The notes under the pieces are model-generated. The model worked only from the letters and a program-made list of their open reading frames with translations. It was not told the origin of the DNA and did no database searches. From the NCBI GenBank assembly GCA_013334825.1, contig JAAXWR010000002.1, forward strand, positions 34,025 through 98,024: a stretch of DNA of 64,000 nt, written 5' to 3'. Source of the stretch: Candidatus Yonathbacteria bacterium (GTDB taxonomy: Bacteria; Patescibacteriota; Minisyncoccia; Phycocordibacterales; JACNGX01). Below are positions 4,543-60,447 of the stretch, piece after piece. Both the position numbers and the translations under genes were made by a program. The first letter of the stretch is position 1; each line of letters opens with the position of its first letter.

Positions 4543-5086
4543 AAGAATAGAAAACAATTATAAACAACAACGGGACGGGGCGAAAGCCCCGTCCCGTATT
4601 CGTATGTTCCCTGTAGCACGTGGGGTGCAGGGCAAGCGTACAAGTTCGTACTTCGTAGCCCGTCTCTAGTACAGCGTAGGGTGCAGGGCAGGGCGTAATT
4701 TTTAATTCAGCATTCATAATTTATACACAGTTTCCTTTTTCTCATGTTGTATCGTGTGTTCGTTCTACGAACTAAGAACTACGAACTACGAACTTGTGTT
4801 CGTCCATGTTCCACTACACCAACTTTTCTCATGCTTGTCATGCTTGCGTATCTTTTTTCGAGAATTATACTGATAGGGGGTTGCTACGGGTATTTTCTAG
4901 GACAAATCGTTTTTTCAGGGAGTCCGATGTTACTGCGCGCTTTGGTGCGTATGTTCAGGACACCCACCTGGCAATACGCTAGGGAATGCCCGGTTTATGC
5001 AACCCCTCAAAAGTCGTCCATCGTTCTTTCCAAGAATGCTGGACGTTTTTTGTTTGTTCTTTTCTTTCCTGTGATATACTTGTTGT

Positions 5087-6949: not shown

Positions 6950-7525
6950 ATGAATGATACGCGTATCACGTCTCATACACAAAAACGTCCCACGATTTTT
7001 GTATCGGGACCATCTTCTTCGTGTGATGCTGACACGGCAGGGAAGGGACGTGCGCTTGGACATGCGATTGCACGTGGGCAAGCAATACTTTTGACAGGAA
7101 CGGGGAATGGTTTTGCGAGGTATGTTGCAGAAGGTGCAATGTCCGAAGGAGGAACGGTCATAGGACTATCACCCGCATCAAACGTTGAAGAACATACATC
7201 ATTGTATGGTCTTTCCACGTTGTATCACGATACTATTATATACACAGGATTTGGCTATGCGGGACGAGATATGCTTTTGTCGCGTTCAGCAGATGCCATG
7301 ATTGTGGGATCAGGTGATGTGGCACATGCATATGATATTATGCTTCTCCTCCATGAAAAGAAACCCTGTGGTGTACTTGAGGGACCATGGCTTCTTGATG
7401 ATACACTCAAAGAATTATTTACGCGTTCTGGGCGTACACGTGAGGGAATGGTGTTTTCGCCAGATTCAGAAACGCTTGTCACGCGAATACTCGAAGAGAT
7501 ACGCATGACGCGTATGCGCGCGTGA
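6950..7525 (+). CDS. TIGR00725/LOG-like Rossmann-fold protein
   Basis: Pattern 'IFVSGPSSS…GHAIARGQAILLTGTGNGFARYVAEGA…MIVGSGDVAHAYD' is typical of the LOG/TIGR00725 family. Confidence 0.55.
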   Translation: MNDTRITSHTQKRPTIFVSGPSSSCDADTAGKGRALGHAIARGQAILLTGTGNGFARYVAEGAMSEGGTVIGLSPASNVEEHTSLYGLSTLYHDTIIYTGFGYAGRDMLLSRSADAMIVGSGDVAHAYDIMLLLHEKKPCGVLEGPWLLDDTLKELFTRSGRTREGMVFSPDSETLVTRILEEIRMTRMRA

Positions 7526-7534
7526 GAAGTACCT

Positions 7535-8119
7535 ATGAACGATCTCGACCGTATTGCTGACGATATTCGTCTCTGTCACAAATGCCCATTGGCACAGACA
7601 CGCATATGTGCTGTCCCAGGAACAGGAAGTGGAAAAAGCGATATCGTCTTTATTGGTGAAGCTCCTGGTGCGCGTGAAGACCGTGAAGGATTGCCATTTA
7701 TTGGTGCTGCGGGGAAATTTCTTGATGAAATGCTTGCGGATATTGCGCTCTCTCGTGCCGATGTGTTTGTTACGAACGTCGTGAAATGTCGTCCACCGGA
7801 CAACCGTGACCCGCTTCCTGAAGAAGTGCGTATCTGCACAGAAGCATATCTCTGGAAACAGTTGGAAGTGCTCAAGCCAAAACTTCTCGTGCCACTTGGT
7901 CGGCATGCCATGCACCGTTTTCTCCCAGTAACAGAAAAAATAAGCGAGATACACGGCACGCCTGTTGGTATTACAAACCCTCTGTCAGGAGAGAAATATG
8001 TTGTTCTTCCGCTCTATCACCCCGCGGCAGCGCTCTATAACGGGAGTATGCGGGAAGTACTCAAGCGTGATTTTCGCGAAATACCGAAGATGATTGAAAA
8101 GATGAAATATGAAAAATGA
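7535..8119 (+). CDS. udg: Uracil-DNA glycosylase family 4 (Fe-S type)
   Basis: Motifs 'CHKCPL…', 'GEAPGAREDREGLPFIGAAGKFLDEML' and 'VVKCRPPDNRDP' match family-4 UDG. Confidence 0.85.
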   Translation: MNDLDRIADDIRLCHKCPLAQTRICAVPGTGSGKSDIVFIGEAPGAREDREGLPFIGAAGKFLDEMLADIALSRADVFVTNVVKCRPPDNRDPLPEEVRICTEAYLWKQLEVLKPKLLVPLGRHAMHRFLPVTEKISEIHGTPVGITNPLSGEKYVVLPLYHPAAALYNGSMREVLKRDFREIPKMIEKMKYEK

Positions 8120-8317
8120 AATATGTATAAAAAAGCGCACGAACTGCCGCCCGCACTTTTCCTGAGTAAAAAGGGTAATAATTTCCTAGTCATCCGTAGG
8201 ATCAATCAGAATATATTATAATTATAAAAAATCACATGTATTATTTGTGTATTATTAGATTTTTACTTTTTTGGTTTGAATATGAACTAATTGAGTGGCG
8301 CCATCTGACGCCTTTTT

Positions 8318-9013: not shown

Positions 9014-9559
9014 TCATACTTGTTTACCTTTTTCCAGTACCAGAGAAAGTCCTTTTGGGCTTTTCTTTGCAGGGTCGGCAATGCGGTAGGGTACAGAAAT
9101 AAGTACAAGAATACGGTCGAGGCGTTCTTTGAGGAATTCTTCTTTCATATATTTTGCGCGTCCAGCGAGGAAGAGATCCAATTTAACACGATGTCCTTCG
9201 GATAACCATGCAGAAATACGTTTTGCTTTGAGCGCGAGGTCATGGTCGCCTGTACCGATTTTGACTTGAACCACTTTTGTTTCGGTTGTATGTGCTTTGC
9301 TTTTGACGTCGCGCTGTTTTTTGCTCTGTTCGTATTGGTATTTTCCGTAGTCAGTGATGCGTGCAACAGGGGGAACAGCATTCGGCGATACTTCAATAAG
9401 GTCAAATCCGAGTTCATGGGCTTTGCGTACAGCCTCTAGTGTATCCATGACACCGAAGTTTTCTCCTTCGGGACCAATAACGCGTACCTCAGGAACACGA
9501 ATTTCTTTATTGAGGCGGGTACGTCCCGCGGGAATTTTTTGTGGAGGGTAATCACTCAT
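9014..9559 (-). CDS. infC: Translation initiation factor IF-3
   Basis: '…EIRVPEVRVIGPEGENFGVMDTLEAVRKAHELGFDLIEVSPNAVPPVARITDYGKYQYE…' is IF-3. infC-rpmI-rplT sit in the conserved operon order. Confidence 0.9.
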   Translation of the reverse strand: MSDYPPQKIPAGRTRLNKEIRVPEVRVIGPEGENFGVMDTLEAVRKAHELGFDLIEVSPNAVPPVARITDYGKYQYEQSKKQRDVKSKAHTTETKVVQVKIGTGDHDLALKAKRISAWLSEGHRVKLDLFLAGRAKYMKEEFLKERLDRILVLISVPYRIADPAKKSPKGLSLVLEKGKQV

Positions 9560-9710
9560 CTATTGAAAAAAGCCCGCTTTTCGCAAGCTCTCGTCAATCA
9601 TATAAGAAAGAGAGTAAAGAGTCAATAGCCCCTGCGCCAAGGAGGATGCAGGGCGGGCTTGTTTGGAGTAAGGAAACAAAACAATATGCCGCGCTTCGCG
9701 CGGCATCCGT

Positions 9711-9905
9711 CTATTGTAAATTATATTCCTCATCTCCTTTTAGTGCTTTTTCTCGTAAAGCTCTTTCAGCGTCCTCAGCCGCTTTTCGTTTTCTATACAA
9801 CTCTTCATCTTCTGCTGAGCCGACGAATGCGATATGTGCGTCAATTTCTTCTGCATCGTTCAGCGCATCATGTATAGCTTCATCGTGAAAAGGTTGTGTT
9901 TCCAT
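9711..9905 (-). CDS. Small acidic hypothetical protein (about 64 aa)
   Basis: ORF with a plausible internal start 'METQPFHDEAIHD…'. No homology recognised. Confidence 0.35.
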   Translation of the reverse strand: METQPFHDEAIHDALNDAEEIDAHIAFVGSAEDEELYRKRKAAEDAERALREKALKGDEEYNLQ

Positions 9906-10051
9906 GATATGGGGTGTTGATTGATAATACTGTAGATGATACTTCTGTATATAGTATATATCACGAAACATATCTACGCGCAATATGTTGAATGGTGATA
10001 CTATATACATATACTATGACAGTACGAGACACGCAGATATATAAGCGGAGT

Positions 10052-10939
10052 ATGCCATATATCCTGATAATCATTGTCGCGGGAGGTGCTTTTTTATGGG
10101 GGAGAAATACCGCACCTCCTCTTACTCTGCATGGAGACATTGCTTCACCAATTGATACAGATATATATGTTCCAACAGAAAACATAGCTTCTGTCGCTCC
10201 ACTCGATGATGTATTCATGACAGATAGTCTCGCAGATGAAACACCTGTTCTTGTGGAACATTCTTCTGTTGTATATCCTCACGTGCAGACAGATGAGCGT
10301 GTGTCCCATGAGACATATCGTGTTCTCTCTGTTGTTGATGGTGATACACTTACAGTGGATATGGACGGTGTGTCGCAGACACTTCGTTTGATAGGGCTTG
10401 ATACACCCGAGACGGTTGATCCACGCAAGCCGGTACAATGTTTTGGCAAAGAAGCCTCTCAGAAAGCAAAAAATGTTTTGACAGGAAAGCGTGTGCGTAT
10501 TGAGCGTGACGTAACGCAAGGTGTATATGACAAATATAATCGACTTCTTGCCTATGTGTTTTTGGAGGATGGAACATTTTTCAATGAAATGATGATTCGT
10601 GAAGGATATGGACATGAATATACGTATGCGACACCATATGCGTATCAAACACTGTTTCAGGAAGCAGAACATGATGCACGCGCAAACGGTAGAGGGCTGT
10701 GGGCAGTGGACGCATGCGCGGGAGACACAACGTCTCCACCCACACCAAGTGTAACAACCAGCGTAGTGGTATCTTCTACAACATCAGGATATACATGTGC
10801 TACGAATACCTATAATTGTACAGATTTTAGTACACAAATGGAGGCGCAACACGTATTTGAGGAATGTGGGGGAACAAACAATGATATACATCGTCTTGAT
10901 TCGGATAAAGACGGTCGTGTTTGTGAAAGTCTACCGTGA
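10052..10939 (+). CDS. Membrane-anchored thermonuclease (SNase-like) with a C-terminal Excalibur Ca-binding domain
   Basis: N-terminal TM anchor 'MPYILIIIVAGGAFLW'. SNase core 'VVDGDTLTV…IRLIGLDTPETVDP…CFGKEASQ…RLLAYVF…' is present. The C-terminal 'CTDFSTQMEAQHVFEECGG…DSDKDGRVCE' is an Excalibur-type motif. Confidence 0.8.
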   Translation: MPYILIIIVAGGAFLWGRNTAPPLTLHGDIASPIDTDIYVPTENIASVAPLDDVFMTDSLADETPVLVEHSSVVYPHVQTDERVSHETYRVLSVVDGDTLTVDMDGVSQTLRLIGLDTPETVDPRKPVQCFGKEASQKAKNVLTGKRVRIERDVTQGVYDKYNRLLAYVFLEDGTFFNEMMIREGYGHEYTYATPYAYQTLFQEAEHDARANGRGLWAVDACAGDTTSPPTPSVTTSVVVSSTTSGYTCATNTYNCTDFSTQMEAQHVFEECGGTNNDIHRLDSDKDGRVCESLP

Positions 10940-11046
10940 GAGGTAGATTTTCTAGAAACTACGCTATTGCACGTATTGTCTGTATGGTGTACAACAAGGG
11001 TAGTGTTTTTTGCAAGAACATATAATCCATAAAACAAAGGAAAAAG

Positions 11047-12402
11047 ATGATACAAGTAACAATGTTGGATTCCGGACCTACGTCTGCCGTTGAAGCGATT
11101 TCATTCGGCGCACTTGTGTGCTATCAGGGAGAGATTCCTGAATACGGCAAGAAAATTGATATCCAAAAACGTCTCTTTGAAACAGGGCACCATACGACAT
11201 TTCAACATACATACTGCTCATTCGTTATTGACGGTATTCCTGTTGGCAGTGTGACGTTCGGTCTCCATCTTCACCCGTTCTATAACACGGGACAACGGTC
11301 GGGGAGGTTCTGCTCGGGGATGTTCGCGAACCCGGATCTGGATGCGATACAAGAGTCAATCGCGACATTCTGGTCACTTGAAAAGGATGTTATGGCGGAA
11401 GTCATGGACTATGTCGCATCCGGCTTTGCTGTGTATGGAACATGGTTCGATCGTGCGAAAGAACTGACCGCGACGTATATACAGGAAGACCGCCCTTATG
11501 CTTCGGAGAAGTATGTGACGGCGAACGCGGAGAAGATAGCGCAGGAACAATTGCGCGTGTTTATTCCCGTGATATTTCCCACAGCTCTTGAGTACACTAT
11601 CAATCTATCCACACTTGCCGCGCTCTACGCAAGCGCATGGTCTCCTGTGTTACAGGATGTGACGAAACAGATGGCCGAGAGGGTGCTTGAGAAATGGCCT
11701 GAACTCTCATTCATGTTTGAAAGAGGAAGGAGATCTCTCAGTCATTTTTTCGTCTCCATGGATGATGATATTTATGACAAGAATGCCATTCTCTTTGACC
11801 CAGTCCTCAGCGTGCTTCATGTGGATGATGTTTCTGAAAGTGACATGTTCATTATTTCTGAAACGGACATGCACCCAATCAACCTCCTCCCGTTTTATCC
11901 CACATTCATGGAGTTTGATGTTGCAGAGTTAAAGACAGACGTTGAAATGTCTGTCGCGACACTCGGGCAGAAACAGCGACACAGGACTGTGCGAAGAAGT
12001 TTCCCGAGATTTACCGGGAACTTCTATCTCCCACCCGTTCCTCGCGGTTTGGGACTTGAAAGAGATGCCACACTTCTCATGGAGAAATGGATGTCACTTC
12101 GGATGAAGATACATTCGGACCTTTTCATGAATCTTGCACCGTATGGCGCAATGGTTAGATATCAGGAAATTGCTTCATTTAATTCAGCAATTCATGAAGG
12201 GGCGAAACGTCTGTGCTTATGCGCACAAGAGGAGATTTATCATCTCGCTCGTCAGGAGGAAGCACAGATTTCAAGTACTCCTTTGAGGAAATTTTTTGCT
12301 CCTCCGTGCATGGCGACAGGGAAGTGTGGTGAGGGGGTGCGGTACTGTGGCAGAGACCTCAAGAAACTGCCGGAGGATCCTTTTCCGAAACGGCGGGTAT
12401 GA
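11047..12402 (+). CDS. ThyX (flavin-dependent thymidylate synthase)-like fold protein with an altered dUMP-binding motif, fused to a roughly 235-aa Cys-containing C-terminal region
   Basis: The N-terminal 215 aa align with ThyX: 'HGHETPFEHxxFTFxVxGISRAxxxQxxRHRxxSYxxxSxRY' versus 'TGHHTTFQHTYCSFVIDGIPVGSVTFGLHLHPFYNTGQRSGRF'. RHR is replaced by HLH, and the S-G-R is kept. The C-terminal half has no recognisable homology, with several Cys near the end. Confidence 0.55.
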   Translation: MIQVTMLDSGPTSAVEAISFGALVCYQGEIPEYGKKIDIQKRLFETGHHTTFQHTYCSFVIDGIPVGSVTFGLHLHPFYNTGQRSGRFCSGMFANPDLDAIQESIATFWSLEKDVMAEVMDYVASGFAVYGTWFDRAKELTATYIQEDRPYASEKYVTANAEKIAQEQLRVFIPVIFPTALEYTINLSTLAALYASAWSPVLQDVTKQMAERVLEKWPELSFMFERGRRSLSHFFVSMDDDIYDKNAILFDPVLSVLHVDDVSESDMFIISETDMHPINLLPFYPTFMEFDVAELKTDVEMSVATLGQKQRHRTVRRSFPRFTGNFYLPPVPRGLGLERDATLLMEKWMSLRMKIHSDLFMNLAPYGAMVRYQEIASFNSAIHEGAKRLCLCAQEEIYHLARQEEAQISSTPLRKFFAPPCMATGKCGEGVRYCGRDLKKLPEDPFPKRRV

Positions 12403-12486
12403 TATCCTTTTTGTTAAGTGTTCATTCGTGTGATAACAGGTTCTTCGAGGGCCTGTTTTTTGTAAGAATATAGATACAAACAAAAA

Positions 12487-12504
12487 CGGCCCCGATGGGC
12501 CGTG
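12487..12504. terminator. Bidirectional terminator hairpin between convergent genes
   Basis: ACGGCCC-GATG-GGGCCGT stem-loop with flanking A and T runs. Confidence 0.55.
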
Positions 12505-12510
12505 TGATTT

Positions 12511-13002
12511 TCACCTGTTTTTATGAAGGAACGCAAGGATGCGTTCTTTTTCAGGGTGTTGTTCCGCAATCCTGTAAAAGATGTACGGATTTTTGTAAAG
12601 GTCGAAGTACTCCTCAAGGAGTGCCACGGAGATTGTTCGACCTTTTTGTACGATACGAAACTCCACTTCTTTGAAATGCTCCTCTAACAGTTGTTCTGCG
12701 AATGGGATATCCGAAATAAAAAATAATGTTGATAATCCCATGGGGTATTTGCCCCATTCTCTGAGGCGTTCCTTAAGAGACATCAGACATATGTCGTAGT
12801 ATCTTGCGACATAGACAAATGCCAATGTCACTGTGCCGAGTGTCGGGATCCTTTCTTTGAGAAGTTCGATGATCCGCGCATCGCGCGTTCTCTCGTCTTC
12901 ATCAGGGAGAGGTTCCATGGCACCAAATAGCGTCTCCCATTCTTTTGCGTAGACGGCACCTATGCCTTCTTTTGAAAGGATACGACCATTGCTTGTTTCC
13001 AT
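12511..13002 (-). CDS. Hypothetical protein (163 aa)
   Basis: Intact ORF, convergent with the ThyX-like gene. No motif recognised. Confidence 0.45.
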   Translation of the reverse strand: METSNGRILSKEGIGAVYAKEWETLFGAMEPLPDEDERTRDARIIELLKERIPTLGTVTLAFVYVARYYDICLMSLKERLREWGKYPMGLSTLFFISDIPFAEQLLEEHFKEVEFRIVQKGRTISVALLEEYFDLYKNPYIFYRIAEQHPEKERILAFLHKNR

Positions 13003-13183
13003 TTTTTCTTAGGATTTTGAGGTTGTGGAAAGGACTTTGTTAAGTGGACTATAGCATACTTTTCTGGTTTTGGGAAGGGGTATATCGCAGGAATGCCCGT
13101 TACTGTTTTTTTGTATGAAGCCCTATATTTCAACATGACTTTTTATACACAGGTGTATTTAAAATATTTTTTGATTTGATATT

Positions 13184-13579
13184 ATGAAGTACATGAAGGA
13201 CTTTCTTATGTGGATACAACAAAAAATAACATTGGATAGGAGTATTCATCGTCCCCCTTTTGTTTCTGAAGGTGATATATGGTGGGCATCTATCGGAGAA
13301 AATATTGGTTCAGAAATTTGAGGAAAGAGTTCTCTTTTTTCAAGACCAGTGATTATTTATCGTAAACTTGTTCATGGTTTTTATTTTGTCATACCGACGA
13401 GCACAAAGGAAAAAGAAGGAAGTTGGTATGTCCCATATCAACATAAAGGTGTAAAAAATGTTGCGTGTTTACACCAAGCTCGCGCTGTTGATCATCGCTG
13501 TATTTAAAATAAATTAGGCACATTAGATGATAGGGACTTCGAATTGGTTCGTCAAGGTTTTCATGATTTGTATAAATAA
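13184..13579 (+). pseudogene. MazF/PemK-family toxin pseudogene, single frame interrupted by in-frame TGA and TAA
   Basis: One frame reads 'MKYMKDFLMWIQQKITLDRSIHRPPFVSEGDIWWASIGENIGSEI*GKSSLFSRPVIIYRKLVHGFYFVIPTST…VKNVACLHQARAVDHRCI*NKLGTLDDRDFELVRQGFHDLYK*'. This matches the MazF/PemK pattern (GDIVxVDF…GSEQ/GxRPxLVxS…I/CPIT…) with two internal stops. There is no upstream antitoxin ORF. Confidence 0.5.
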
Positions 13580-13721
13580 CAATATTCCCCGCCCTTATGG
13601 GCGGGGTCGCGGGACAATCCCGAATGTATGTTAAGTGTATATGAGGTATAAAAATTGTGTAACTATTTAAAGGAGTCCATAAATGCGCACAACATTTATA
13701 GGGTATCGACCCCGCAGTTAT

Positions 13722-13821
13722 CCAGCTCCACTTTCATAATAAACACACATGCTATGATAGATTTTTTATCCGAGACGTGAGTATTGTTTATAGATAAAGT
13801 CTTTTATGAAAGTGGGGCTGG
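13722..13821. repeat. 100-nt palindromic element with 16-nt terminal inverted repeats CCAGCTCCACTTTCAT / ATGAAAGTGGGGCTGG (copy 1 of 2)
   Basis: The same termini and the same 100-nt length recur at 58244-58343 with an unrelated interior. The termini resemble tmRNA/tRNA acceptor ends (…CCAGCUCCAC / GGGGCUGG…). Confidence 0.6.
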
Positions 13822-13834
13822 ATGCTCCTGGGCG

Positions 13835-13872
13835 CCGAGCACCACTTTTATAACGATAAAAGTGGTGCTCGG
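13835..13872. repeat. Hairpin repeat CCGAGCACCACTTTT-N8-AAAAGTGGTGCTCGG (family member 1 of 3)
   Basis: Near-identical stems recur at 59017-59052 and 60411-60447. All are adjacent to tRNA or tmRNA sequences. Confidence 0.6.
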
Positions 13873-13873
13873 T

Positions 13874-14186
13874 TCGATACCCCCACGCGAGCCGAGCAGT
13901 CGGCTCGCTCATCTCCACACGCAAAACAACAAACCACCCTTTCGGGTGGGTTGTTTTGGTGTGGAGATGGGGGGTATTGGTCAGGAGTCCGTGAAAATCA
14001 TAGTCGCTTTGCTCCTTGATTTTCTACGGCTCACGACCCTGGCTCGGCGACAAGCACTCGCACGCAAGCGTGCTCGTCTTGTGTACCGCCTCCGCCTTTC
14101 GATACCCCCAGCGAAAAGCTCGCTTTTCGCTTCACATCTCCAATCCATAAAAAAGAAACACCTCTTTAAAGAGGCGCTTCTTTTTT
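13874..14186. repeat. Array of tmRNA-terminus-like modules, each followed by an A-run/hairpin/T-run terminator. Modules: 13874-13921 + terminator 13922-13956; 3'-end copy 13957-13974; 14095-14136 + terminator 14150-14186
   Basis: The motif 'TTCGATACCCCC-A-[short hairpin]-CATCTCCA' occurs twice (its reverse complement is GGAGATG-[hairpin]-GGGGGTATCGAA). A second copy 'CCCCCCATCTCCACACCA' of the authentic tmRNA 3' end 'CCCCCCATCTCCACCA' lies 230 nt downstream of the real one. Confidence 0.5.
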
Positions 14187-14187
14187 A

Positions 14188-14605
14188 TGGTGGAGATGGG
14201 GGGTATCGAACCCCCGTCCAAACGTGGTTTGCGAGTGGGTCTACGCGATGTAGGTTGTTTTTTGGATTTGAACCGATTGTTTTTGAAACAAACAAAACGA
14301 CAATCAGTCGAGTTTCGTCGATTCTCGAGCGTCTGATGAAACGGTCAGATGCTCCAGTCCGATGAGTATGACACCCTCTCAGACATATCGGACGTCAGAA
14401 GAGAGGACGCCGCTTAGGCGAATCGAGACACGAGGTCTTGATTAGGCGAAAGCGGGAGCGAAGGACGGTATTCCAAAGTAGGAAGAGGCAATACCTTTTG
14501 CTTTAAGAGACAAGTTCGCACTTATCGTTTGTGACGGTTTTACGAGTCATCACAGCTCGATCGCGCGCACGGGCAGAGACACGCCTGTCGAAGCCGATCA
14601 TCCCC
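14188..14605 (-). ncRNA. ssrA: tmRNA (ssrA), standard one-piece, 418 nt
   Basis: Minus-strand 5' end 'GGGGAUGAUCGGCUUCGACAGGCG' matches the conserved tmRNA 5' acceptor strand and GGnUUCGAC element. The 3' end 'GGACGGGGGUUCGAUACCCCCCAUCUCCACCA' has a T-arm, a 7-nt acceptor strand complementary to the 5' end (one G·U pair) and an encoded CCA, followed by a terminator. The gene lies immediately downstream of and co-oriented with smpB. A candidate tag ORF after '…CUCUUAAA' is GCA AAA GGU … GCC UAA, giving AKGIASSYFGIPSFAPAFA*. The tag is low confidence. Confidence 0.7.
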
Positions 14606-14670: not shown

Positions 14671-15114
14671 TTATTCATCTTTCAAAGATCGACGCATTTC
14701 ACGTTCTGCTTCACGCTTTTTGATAGTTTCGCGTTTGTCGAACTGTTTTTTACCACGTCCGATAGCGACTTCCACCTTGAGAAACTTATGTTTATTATAC
14801 ACTGAAAGTGGGATAACTGTCAATCCATTGGTAGATTCAGCGTCGGAGAGTTGTGCGATTTCTTTTTTGGACAAAAGAAGCCGTCGTGTCCGCGCGGGGT
14901 CATAGGACAGAGGAGTATTGACACTTTGATAGGGCGGTATGGTCATACCGACAATATATGCTTCACCTCCACGCACGAGAACGTGGGCACCTTCAAGTGA
15001 CCCCCTCCCGCCACGAAGAGACTTTACTTCAAAACCGTGCAAATCCAAGCCCGCCTCAAATTTCTCAAGGATGTCATAATCAAAATGTGCTTTTTTGTTC
15101 CGTATCAGAGACAT
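14671..15114 (-). CDS. smpB: SsrA-binding protein SmpB
   Basis: '…KKAHFDYDILEKFEAGLDLHGFEVKSLRGGRGSLEGAHV…' is canonical SmpB. Confidence 0.9.
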   Translation of the reverse strand: MSLIRNKKAHFDYDILEKFEAGLDLHGFEVKSLRGGRGSLEGAHVLVRGGEAYIVGMTIPPYQSVNTPLSYDPARTRRLLLSKKEIAQLSDAESTNGLTVIPLSVYNKHKFLKVEVAIGRGKKQFDKRETIKKREAEREMRRSLKDE

Positions 15115-58167: not shown

Positions 58168-58244
58168 TGCCGGGGTAGCTCAGTTGGTTAGAGCATAGCA
58201 CTCATAAAGCTAAGGTCGTGGGTTCGATCCCCACCCCCGGCACC
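58168..58244 (+). tRNA. tRNA-Met (CAT) elongator-type or tRNA-Ile2 (lysidine)
   Basis: Cloverleaf: acceptor GCCGGGG/CCCCGGC, D-arm GCTC-AGTTGGTTA-GAGC, anticodon loop CTCATAA, T-arm GTGGG-TTCGATC-CCCAC, discriminator A. A G1-C72 pair argues against the initiator type. Confidence 0.85.
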
Positions 58245-58343
58245 CAGCTCCACTTTCATGGATGACGCATGTAGTATGCTTGCGTTTGTTGTTGCGACTA
58301 TAATTTTTGGTGATTTATCTTCTGTTATGAAAGTGGGGCTGGG
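58244..58343. repeat. 100-nt palindromic element, copy 2, with termini CCAGCTCCACTTTCAT / ATGAAAGTGGGGCTGG, abutting the tRNA-Met 3' end
   Basis: The termini and the length are identical to 13722-13821. The interior is unrelated. Confidence 0.6.
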
Positions 58344-58798: not shown

Positions 58799-58875
58799 GC
58801 GGCCGTGGTGTAGCCCGGTTAACACGTCGCTCTGTCACAGCGAAGATCGCCGGTTCAAATCCGGTCGGCCGCGCA
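58799..58875 (+). tRNA. tRNA-Asp (GTC)
   Basis: Acceptor GCGGCCG/CGGCCGC, D-arm GTGT-…-ACAC, anticodon stem TCGCT/AGCGA with loop CTGTCAC, T-arm GCCGG-TTCAAAT-CCGGT, discriminator G. A terminator follows at 58876-58917. Confidence 0.85.
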
Positions 58876-58917
58876 TAACAAGAAAGGGCTGGCTTTTGCC
58901 AGCCCTTTCTTGTTATG

Positions 58918-59125
58918 TCTATCGCGAGCCGACTGGATTTGAACACGTAGGGGGTCGGGGGCGGCGGAACGCCCCCGTGAAGGAGGTTACGTGGAACCGT
59001 GGGTTCTACGAGCGCACCGAGCACCACTTTCATAAATGAAAGTGGTGCTCGGGAGCAGTGAATATTCCGGTCGGCCGCGCATAACAAAAAGAGGTTGGCT
59101 TTTGCCAATCTCTTTTTGTGTATAC
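58918..59125. repeat. tRNA-fragment mosaic and att-like scar: an inverted tRNA-Asp-like T-arm/acceptor fragment (58920-58945), a GC hairpin, a CCGAGCACCACTTTCAT-AA-ATGAAAGTGGTGCTCGG hairpin (59017-59052), then a direct duplicate of the tRNA-Asp 3' end plus terminator (59064-59122)
   Basis: 'TCCGGTCGGCCGCGCATAACAAgAAAGggcTGGCTTTTGCCAgccCTTTCTTGTTAT' at 58860-58917 recurs as 'TCCGGTCGGCCGCGCATAACAAaAAGAggtTGGCTTTTGCCAatcTCTTTTTGT' at 59066-59122. Confidence 0.6.
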
Positions 59126-60358: not shown

Positions 60359-60410
60359 GCAGGAGCCAAGAACACAACATGCATTTATGCATGTTGTGTA
60401 GGGGATCGAA

Positions 60411-60447
60411 CCGAGCACCACTTTTGCCATTGCAAAAGTGGTGCTCG
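60411..60447. repeat. Hairpin repeat CCGAGCACCACTTTTGC-CAT-TGCAAAAGTGGTGCTCG (family member 3), preceded by GGGGATCGAA and palindromic hairpins
   Basis: The same stem as at 13835-13872 and 59017-59052. The preceding 'GGGGATCGAACCGAGCACC' mirrors 'GGGGGTATCGAACCGAGCACC' in the tmRNA-scar region. Confidence 0.6.

Follow-up and report, generated by a model that had tools for sequence, protein, structure and literature searches.

Genomic islands and prophages reportedly integrate at the 3' ends of transfer RNA (tRNA) genes and of ssrA, the gene for transfer-messenger RNA (tmRNA), by means of tyrosine integrases, with attL and attR repeats and a sublocation in the T-loop (work of K. Williams). Other systems of interest here are 3' trailer RNAs and tRNA-like processing modules, represented by 3'ETS-leuZ and mascRNA. 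Here, we describe the DNA directly behind ssrA in Candidatus Yonathbacteria bacterium, at positions 13700-14187 of a 64,000-nucleotide stretch of contig JAAXWR010000002.1 (hereafter the window), in which two non-coding cassettes of roughly 230-270 bp each are stacked in tandem. We tentatively read this stretch, at slightly less than even chances, as a tandem array of two miniature, non-autonomous, non-coding cassettes of a family that sits on the 3' side of tmRNA and tRNA genes. A preliminary description, made from the sequence of the window, had taken the same stretch for a multiply scarred integration site.

Two tandem cassettes behind the tmRNA gene

ssrA (14605..14188, minus strand; CCA encoded, tag ANLSLKAKGIASSYFGIPSFAPAFA) was detected by ARAGORN and by the Rfam model RF00023, which it matches over its full length (model positions 1-374) with 131.9 bits against a gathering score of 47. 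Its 3' end reads ...GGGGGTTCGATACCCCCCATCTCCACCA and is directly followed by a hairpin and T-run (14187..14148), so that strand, ends and terminator are all as first proposed in the preliminary description. In the following, X (or A) designates the gene 3' end, B an inverted copy of X, C a direct copy, and T1, T2 and T3 classes of internal domains. All parts of the two cassettes lie on the minus strand, like the tmRNA. The repeated segment X (14210..14188, TTCGATACCCCCCATCTCCACCA) comprises the T-loop, the 3' strand of the T-stem, the 3' strand of the acceptor stem and the ACCA of the tmRNA.

Cassette 1 opens with terminator 1 (14187..14148), made of an A-tract, a GC hairpin and a T-tract and forming a palindrome with 23-nt arms. 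It is followed by the inverted copy B1 (14147..14098), which consists of an acceptor box (TGGATTGGAGATG, 14147..14135), the hairpin hp1 (GCGAAAAG-CGAG-CTTTTCGC, 14130..14111) and a T box (GGGGGTATCGAA, 14109..14098). Next comes the T1 domain of 119 nt (14097..13979), identified by the covariance model R1 and by its fold, and then the direct copy C (13978..13957, AATACCCCCCATCTCCACACCA; ATACCCCCCATCTCCAC(AC)CA at 13977..13957), which pairs with B1 and thereby closes T1. C represents the tmRNA 3' end that cassette 1 has displaced, and it also serves as the X copy of cassette 2. The top metagenome relative by SmpB (locus L081, 86% identical) aligns to window positions 13977-13888 from its own tmRNA end.

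Cassette 2 continues with terminator 2 (CCACCCGAAAGGGTGG plus T-tract, 13956..13923), which in L081 is the terminator directly after the tmRNA. The preliminary description had likewise placed a recurrence of the tmRNA 3' end near 13957 with a second terminator behind it, and both are confirmed. The second inverted copy, B2 (13920..13871), reads GTGTGGAGATG, hairpin AGCGAGCCGA-CTGC-TCGGCTCGC, GGGGGTATCGAACC; it is 92% identical to L081, and its CUGC hairpin loop is typical of the cassette family. The T3 domain of this cassette (13870..13720) has two hairpins, hairpin A (13870..13837) and the long hairpin B (13823..13720). These are the two structures that had been noticed at the far end of the stretch, namely a palindrome at 13720-13823 with 25-nt arms that are 88% complementary and a perfect 17-bp hairpin at 13835-13872. 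A partial direct copy, C2 (13713..13701, GGGGTCGATACCC), has lost its acceptor part and pairs with the T box of B2, closing the cassette; in the predicted fold GGGUAUCGA is paired with UCGAUACCC, and C2 thus keeps the inner stem P1.

On the tmRNA strand, the order of parts is A-B-C-B'-C', with inverted copies alternating with direct ones. Two modules of the form 'TTCGATACCCCC-A-hairpin-CATCTCCA' had been described as serial copies of the tmRNA end; they are present in a plus-strand reading, and relative to the tmRNA they are inverted copies, not serial direct ones, each interrupted by a 9-bp hairpin precisely where acceptor and T-stem meet. The copies of the tmRNA 3' end are far beyond chance. 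The 20-mer TTCGATACCCCCCATCTCCA has three matches with up to three mismatches where 0.00 are expected, and GGGGGTATCGAA is found exactly three times where 0.15 copies would be expected (one plus-strand copy within the gene, two minus-strand copies at 14098-14109 and 13873-13884). The cassettes hold no credible protein-coding gene: open reading frames (ORFs) inside them reach at most 65 aa, and those listed across the stretch overlap the tmRNA or the structured repeats. The RNA of cassette 1 is predicted to fold into an outer stem, a hairpin, the inner stem P1 and the helices P2 and P3 (-92.9 kcal/mol, z=-8.1); for cassette 2 the predicted fold gives z=-10.1.

Recurrence, exchange and RNA structure in related genomes

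The tmRNA 3' end was located in 104 related Parcubacteria loci, and the DNA downstream was searched with the reverse complement of the T-loop and T-stem belonging to that same locus. An inverted 11-mer of this sequence, with at most one mismatch, was found in the ~200 nt downstream in 25 of the 104 loci, most often at +56 to +88, against 11 of 525 when the 11-mer of another locus served as the probe. Gene 3' end, terminator, inverted copy, structured domain and direct copy follow each other in the same layout in about one quarter of these loci, and about 75% of the tmRNA loci are without any cassette. The preliminary description had named a conserved structured 3' untranslated region in relatives as an outcome that would speak against integration scars, and in part such an arrangement is what we see.

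The T-stem varies by genome (CCGGG, GGCGG, GGGAG, GCGAG, GGGGG and others), and the inverted copy tracks the T-arm of its own genome each time. B is usually split by a 9-bp hairpin at the junction of acceptor and T-stem. In at least 16 loci, this hairpin is perfectly Watson-Crick paired and lies exactly between the reverse complements of the acceptor and T-stem strands, with an A on one side, GT on the other and mostly a CUGC loop; its insertion point is where the D and anticodon arms leave a real tRNA. The inverted copy is contiguous and without hairpin in L023, L025, L055 and L093. A direct copy starting inside the T-loop is found at about +135 to +280, usually with a further terminator, and in the window as in the other loci the repeat identity starts at T-loop positions 55-58. 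The cassettes are compact (~170-270 bp), ORF-less and complete, with an architecture that is kept in distant Parcubacteria; unit size, part order and internal sequences persist across genomes whose SmpB proteins are only 51-67% identical.

Differences between C and the gene disrupt the pairing of C with B in 40 cells, and wobble preserves it in 16; in general, only the inner stem P1 (the T box of B paired with C) is thus retained. For this reason, we rejected a general tRNA-like RNA that needs an acceptor-type stem (P0). In L033, the closing stem P1 is kept with a sequence unrelated to the tmRNA (CUUUUGUG:CACAAAAG). Even with a decayed C, the acceptor box of B goes on matching the gene perfectly (see also L031, L093 and L120), so that B is under constraint from both the gene copy and C. 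Quasi-palindromes are subject to template-switch correction (quasipalindrome mutagenesis), and the match between B and the gene could be caused either by selection or by such correction of the long quasi-palindrome X-terminator-B.

Comparison of closely related loci shows change at this site. L081, which has the same T-arm, aligns to window positions 15126-14182 (smpB and tmRNA) and then to 13977-13888 at 92% identity, with its tmRNA 3' end joined directly to the terminator 2 and B2 of the window. Since the alignment jumps between repeats, cassette 1 (~205-229 bp) is an insertion or deletion bounded by direct repeats, and the cassette missing from L081 is the one next to the gene. L081 also has a 135-bp unit nested in B2 and flanked by a repeat of part of the hairpin. 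A cassette is present in L067 and absent from L106, two loci with 99.75% identical tmRNAs, and the flank of L106 resumes 254 nt downstream in L003. L120 and L122 are 99.6% identical through tmRNA, terminator and B and diverge ~5 nt past the T box, with T1 in L120 and T2 in L122. L062 and L132 have both flanks in common; the former has T2 alone, whereas the latter has T1 and, within the T box of B, a nested T2. Exact tandem units were seen in L008 and L040. Break points cluster at the T-loop copies, and these alignments show cassettes gained, lost, swapped and nested between near-identical genes. Of the site-specific integration footprint suggested in the preliminary description, the direct repeats of the T-loop, a unit present or absent (L081) and the tandem build-up hold good; the large islands and their decay do not.

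A few arrangements near these cassettes were noted in passing. In L025 (6939-8433), two near-identical T1 cassettes lie 1.4 kb apart around a 329-aa ORF (7136-8125) for which no Pfam match was found; possibly the arrangement is a larger form of the cassette that bears cargo. A small conserved element of the form ..GACTATATTTTTGTAGGATGTCG-loop-CGACGCCA with a CCA-like tail lies at ~+178 to +254 after the tmRNA in L003 and directly after it in L034, and is missing from L106, which is otherwise near-identical to L003. LOOT RNA (Rfam RF03000, 71 bits) was detected in L015 at 4556-4674, ~110 nt past the tmRNA cassette and beyond a terminator; it appears to be a separate gene, and we rejected it as part of the L015 module.

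The same architecture occurs beside tRNA genes. In the window, a whole unit follows tRNA-Asp on the plus strand (58874..59120), with a terminator (58874-58917), inverted copy (58918-58944), a domain that includes hairpin A (59017-59052), direct copy (59065-59087) and second terminator (to 59120). A related unit at tRNA-Thr (60359..60446, plus strand) has an inverted acceptor box GCAGGAGCCAAGA, a hairpin, an inverted T box AGGGGATCGAACC and hairpin A, and tRNA-Met is directly followed by only a long hairpin of the same family (58244-58343, plus strand). This family of palindromic hairpins with AGCNCCACTTTYATAA arms, to which hairpins A and B of T3 belong, has nine matches in the 64-kb window against 0.22 expected, all of them beside tRNA or tmRNA genes (13724-13869, 58246-58340, 59020-59049 and 60430-60445). 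The short AGCNCCACTTTYATAA hairpin (~34 nt) is placed differently between cassettes, as if itself insertable. In other genomes, L065 shows the complete design at tRNA-Ile, with a tRNA-matched inverted copy, CUGC hairpin and T1, and with a 65-nt exact repeat that includes the terminator. L040 has two exact tandem T2 units at tRNA-Ile, and their hairpin resembles that of the tmRNA cassette of the same genome. The association with tRNA-Ile may reflect sampling rather than specificity, since tRNA-Ile lies in the conserved smpB neighbourhood. In L038 (5700-5880, minus strand), T1 and then a T2-like domain lie shortly upstream of smpB, on the strand opposite to it, and no tRNA was detected in the vicinity, so the T1 and T2 domains are not strictly tied to tRNA-like genes.

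On the gene strand, T1 is a predicted structured RNA. Twenty-two domains of "type 1" could be aligned well and have in common the invariant nucleotides GA(A)AG.CGGAGCG ... GAG.C(R)GGGUCG ... UGAC. The helix P2 consists of a G-N-C/G-N'-C helix with a GGA/GA internal loop, and P3 of GGUCG...UGACC with a G.U pair. RNAalifold, applied to these 22 sequences, found compensatory changes in 13 of 20 pairs; the middle pair of the G-N-C/G-N'-C helix is seen as CG, GC, AU and UA. At E<1e-5, the covariance model R1 recovered 39 T1 instances in the window and 161 loci, the window match (13967-14109, minus strand) scoring 66.1 bits (E=1e-15). The G.U pair of P3 is invariant in the 22 aligned domains and present in 35 of the 39 instances. 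In these instances, 95.7% of cells are paired, compared with 70.1% in shuffles, and the covariation score is 0.655 against 0.182 in shuffled alignments (none of 500 shuffles reached 0.655) and 0.04-0.10 in slid controls; the alignment of 39 instances was fitted to R1 and is biased towards the structure, and an independent MAFFT alignment (A1) agrees with it. The tandem GA internal loop and the invariant nucleotides suggest protein binding or tertiary structure.

The direction of T1 is the same as that of the upstream gene in all 39 instances (~29 behind tmRNA, nine behind tRNA-Ile(UAU) and one without a detected tRNA). In folds of the domains inside the modules of 20 loci (T1, T2 and other classes), the tmRNA strand gave a summed energy of -832 kcal/mol against -704 kcal/mol for the opposite strand, and 61 G.U pairs against 30. 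An opposite-strand RNA or riboswitch ending at the shared terminator was rejected, as the G.U pair, the G.U excess and the folding energy all favour the tmRNA strand. The T2 class is characterized by GUACNG followed by a hairpin with the loop UGUAA; it occurs in the same frame in other genomes (11 occurrences). At the gathering threshold, Rfam 15 gave no match at the module positions of the window and 13 loci, and E-value scans of the modules and of a canonical T1 returned only chance matches of microRNA type and a sub-threshold tmRNA_permuted match, which we attribute to the palindrome. We found no Rfam ribozyme match and, by inspection, no suitably placed CUGANGA/GAAA core of a self-cleaving ribozyme. 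A hammerhead or other known ribozyme core is unlikely, and a group I or group II intron fragment was rejected; neither has a model match, and the size is wrong.

Neighbouring genes, mobility enzymes and rival explanations

smpB (147 aa, 15114..14671, minus strand) was recognized as an ORF directly upstream of ssrA. It has 415 tblastn-confirmed relatives in genome contigs, all from Parcubacteria/Patescibacteria, the top one among species-representative genomes being 66% identical. Its relatives place the organism in the Parcubacteria/Paceibacteria, within the Candidate Phyla Radiation. On the other side, infC is the direct downstream neighbour of ssrA in nine other loci, and in the window ~4.6 kb of lineage-specific DNA (within 9014-13950) separates the two genes. 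It contains a MazF remnant, a 163-aa ORF without Pfam match, a long ThyX-like ORF and an SNase/Excalibur nuclease. The stretch suggests a lineage-specific insertion; no bounding repeat was found around it, and no X copy was found past 13701 in the window. The MazF remnant (13184-13558, plus strand; PF02452, PemK/MazF, E=2e-8, residues 29-124) is a pseudogene, its frame broken by two in-frame stops (TGA 13319 and TAA 13505). It sits outside the last X repeat, beyond 13701, and although the pseudogene named in the preliminary description is real, nothing marks it as cargo. A perfect 8-bp all-GC hairpin (CCCCGCCC-ATAA-GGGCGGGG, 13587-13606) lies between the last cassette and this remnant.

Small GIY-YIG nuclease ORFs (PF01541, E=4e-16 and 8e-16; 80-110 aa) lie ~90-170 nt behind ssrA, in the same direction, in eight loci (L027, L035, L048, L049, L065, L119, L146 and L159), and these account for eight of the ten GIY-YIG matches of the whole sample. 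Their leaders fall into two conserved inverted-repeat types (CTCGACTYG...CGCTCGTGGCAAGCCA... or CTACTTCGC...GTGCAGGCAC...), and the units resemble another type of element that targets the 3' end of ssrA. The window lacks any GIY-YIG ORF, and no T1 match was obtained in the elements that bear one. Neither a transposase nor a parent insertion sequence was seen among the 20 window ORFs and the downstream ORFs of the 104 loci. A phage or island carrying X or T1 was rejected, since the scan of viral contigs for X was empty and the lone match to the T1 pattern there was a chance one within GC-rich, apparently coding sequence.

On the gene strand, one cassette consists of a replacement X from the T-loop on, its own terminator, B and a structured domain, and is followed by the displaced older C. 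In our reading, such cassettes would be non-autonomous mobile units that enter by recombination within X, crossing over at or beside the T-loop. The substrate could be {X-terminator-B-domain} as a small intermediate, either circular or single-stranded; folded, this permuted unit would present X and B as a duplex copy of the target with the crossover at its base and an extrahelical hairpin on one arm. The newcomer would enter at the functional gene end and push older cassettes downstream, each cassette would rebuild the gene 3' end and terminator, and the enzyme would act in trans. Read-through from ssrA would transcribe the domain, which the pairing of B and C may close in a stem resembling the acceptor/T-stem stack. 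A further-reaching proposal, which we regard as unlikely, is that the cassette is a ~200-nt protein-free element in which the inverted target copy and the hairpin address the T-loop region of tRNA-like genes, either as a guide open to rewriting or as a folded attachment site, with a single-stranded or circular intermediate and T1 or T2 as RNA cargo. A guide of this type would explain why the same domain occurs behind tmRNA, tRNA-Ile, tRNA-Asp and tRNA-Thr with a target-matched inverted copy.

Several points weigh against a mobile cassette family. Pfam scans of the 20 window ORFs, all neighbours included, revealed no gene for a recombinase, a transposase or a nuclease within the cassettes or close to them, and no recurrent recombinase family emerged among 148 ORFs (≥140 aa) downstream of the tmRNA in the 104 loci. 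Cassettes were not seen in a circular or excised form, nor was any copy of X or T1 found in the scanned viral contigs. T1 also occurs behind tRNA-Ile with repeats of only 5-8 nt, and once without a detected tRNA. How B comes to match new targets (tmRNA, tRNA-Ile, Asp and Thr) is left unexplained by classical integrase models, and the strong purifying selection on T1 would be expected of an RNA useful to the host no less than of a selfish one. Cassettes could have been lost by simple deletion between direct repeats of 17-20 nt, and unequal crossing-over could have made the tandem copies; some of the polymorphisms thus need no mobile element.

A host-owned structured 3' trailer, small RNA or processing or stability element is accordingly a serious rival, if a somewhat unlikely one; the repeats would then serve the closing stem, and differences between genomes would arise via slippage, unequal crossing-over and deletion. 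The very strong structural conservation with its invariant nucleotides and G.U pair fits such an RNA well, as do the constant orientation behind stable-RNA genes, the retention of P1 despite an unrelated sequence (L033) or a lost acceptor part (C2 of the window), and the failure to find a mobility gene in the 20 window ORFs and the downstream ORFs of the 104 loci. Deletion alone, however, hardly produces near-identical tmRNAs with and without a cassette, different domain classes and nested insertions (L132 and L081). The ~75% of loci without a cassette mark it as dispensable, each cassette has its own terminator, and the match of the B acceptor box to the gene despite a decayed C shows that pairing of B and C is not the sole constraint. 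Homing would also do without an integrase and would account for breaks that fall at a conserved target: in this case the cassettes, themselves without ORFs, would derive from elements driven into the 3' end of ssrA or a tRNA gene by a nuclease such as GIY-YIG, with the empty allele cut and repaired from the filled one. The eight GIY-YIG ORFs right behind ssrA and in its direction speak for this, and behind this ORF L048 and L065 have '..CTGACC' or '..GTGACC' and an X-like stretch, like the 3' end of T1; yet the stop codon overlaps 'GTGACC' in L065, where the likeness may be coincidental, the window is without a GIY-YIG ORF, and the GIY-YIG elements have different structured leaders and lack a T1 match, which makes homing very unlikely in our view.

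The explanation offered in the preliminary description, that the copies are attL and attR scars from repeated integration and excision of large integrase islands whose cargo, including the MazF pseudogene, has mostly decayed, appears highly improbable to us. It would agree with direct repeats that start in the T-loop and form a tandem array, with the insertion or deletion relative to L081 and with the ~4.6 kb of lineage-specific DNA between ssrA and infC. Against it, the units are complete, compact and ORF-less, and neutral scars would not keep unit size, part order and internal sequences conserved across genomes. The covariation of the RNA domain indicates selection on structure, no X copy past 13701 bounds a larger island, and comparison with relatives, which had been proposed there as a check for an intact island with an integrase, showed no integrase at the site in any of the 104 loci examined. 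Scarcely credible is the other suggestion made there, that the modules are tmRNA-mimicking decoys. Such mimics of tmRNA or tRNA would act either as RNA that titrates binders of the acceptor/T-arm or as DNA that offers spare attB sites and shields the essential gene. The predicted B:C stem does have acceptor and T-stem sequence and an ACCA-like tail, and direct copies of the attB core do lie downstream of the real gene. The G3.U70 pair is the alanine identity element needed by alanyl-tRNA synthetase, and every locus with an acceptor box has A3-U70 instead. The domain takes the place of the T-loop, decay has often affected the acceptor part of C, and decoys would leave the conservation of T1 and T2 unexplained.

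Significance and comparison with known systems

We found no description of such cassettes at tmRNA or tRNA genes of the Candidate Phyla Radiation (CPR)/Patescibacteria in the searchable literature, whose coverage is incomplete and which does not prove novelty. The published tRNA introns of Patescibacteria are group I introns in the anticodon loop, and cassette-like elements are not described there. The cassettes would be a tRNA/tmRNA-integrating type of element carrying what appear to be new RNA motifs, and there is a modest chance that the targeting principle itself is new. If the miniature-cassette explanation is true, T1 and probably T2 are new, well-supported classes of structured RNA in the CPR, whose genomes are so tiny that a conserved non-coding structure is unlikely to be idle. 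The hot spot at tRNA and tmRNA 3' ends would then also be used by elements two orders of magnitude smaller than the known islands, carrying RNA and not genes. Software that detects islands by their integrases would overlook them, and their repeats could be mis-scored as att scars; for annotation, short repeats of tmRNA or tRNA ends in CPR genomes would be parts of cassettes and not evidence of lost prophages. The target-matched inverted copy, split at the acceptor/T-stem junction, points to recognition by folding or base pairing, and such a mechanism, if enzymatically defined, could be programmable.

Among known elements, the cassettes share with cis-mobilizable elements (CIMEs) and derivatives resembling miniature transposable elements with inverted repeats (MITEs) that they are bounded by recombination-site repeats, have no recombination genes of their own and are presumably moved in trans. 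They differ in having no known parent and no target-site duplication of fixed length. Inverted repeats (the T box of B and C) do flank the domain, as in MITEs, but the direct repeats range from 5-8 to 65 nt. Described CIMEs are far larger, and the internal covariation of RNA type in the cassettes has no counterpart in MITEs.

Integron attC sites and the attP of CTX phage offer a geometric likeness only. As in integrons, a serial array borders a fixed entry site, and the folded X-terminator-B palindrome, with an extrahelical element and the crossover at its base, recalls both systems. The cassettes have no R/L box consensus and no known link to IntI or Xer; by inspection the T-loop core GTTCGAT does not fit GTTRRRY, and the 20 window ORFs include no integrase. 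The cargo is non-coding, and the entry site lies inside a tRNA-like gene.

Like 3'ETS-leuZ and mascRNA, the cassette RNA is encoded immediately 3' of a tRNA-like gene, with which it shares the strand and probably the transcript, and its predicted stem mimics the acceptor/T stack and could recruit tRNA-processing enzymes. Unlike them, it is separated from the gene by a full intrinsic terminator, has no T-loop, and varies in copy number and presence. The predicted stem ends in ACACCA in the window cassette, has A3-U70 (acceptor box GGAGATG in every locus having one) and carries the domain in place of the T-loop.

The resemblance to tRNA/tmRNA islands covers the direct repeat of the gene 3' end from the T-loop (14210..14188 and 13978..13957), the replacement 3' end that keeps the gene intact, the tandem arrays, and a presence that differs between relatives. 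Empty and filled sites with the break at the repeat were found for the window and L081, where the gene-adjacent cassette is absent from the closest relative, and for L067 and L003 compared with L106. No tyrosine or serine recombinase gene lies in or next to the element (20 window ORFs and 148 downstream ORFs). What sets the cassettes apart from islands is their size of ~170-270 bp without integrase or protein cargo, the inverted copy of the att segment with a hairpin at a fixed point, and a cargo that is a conserved structured RNA, with the same domain found at different targets.

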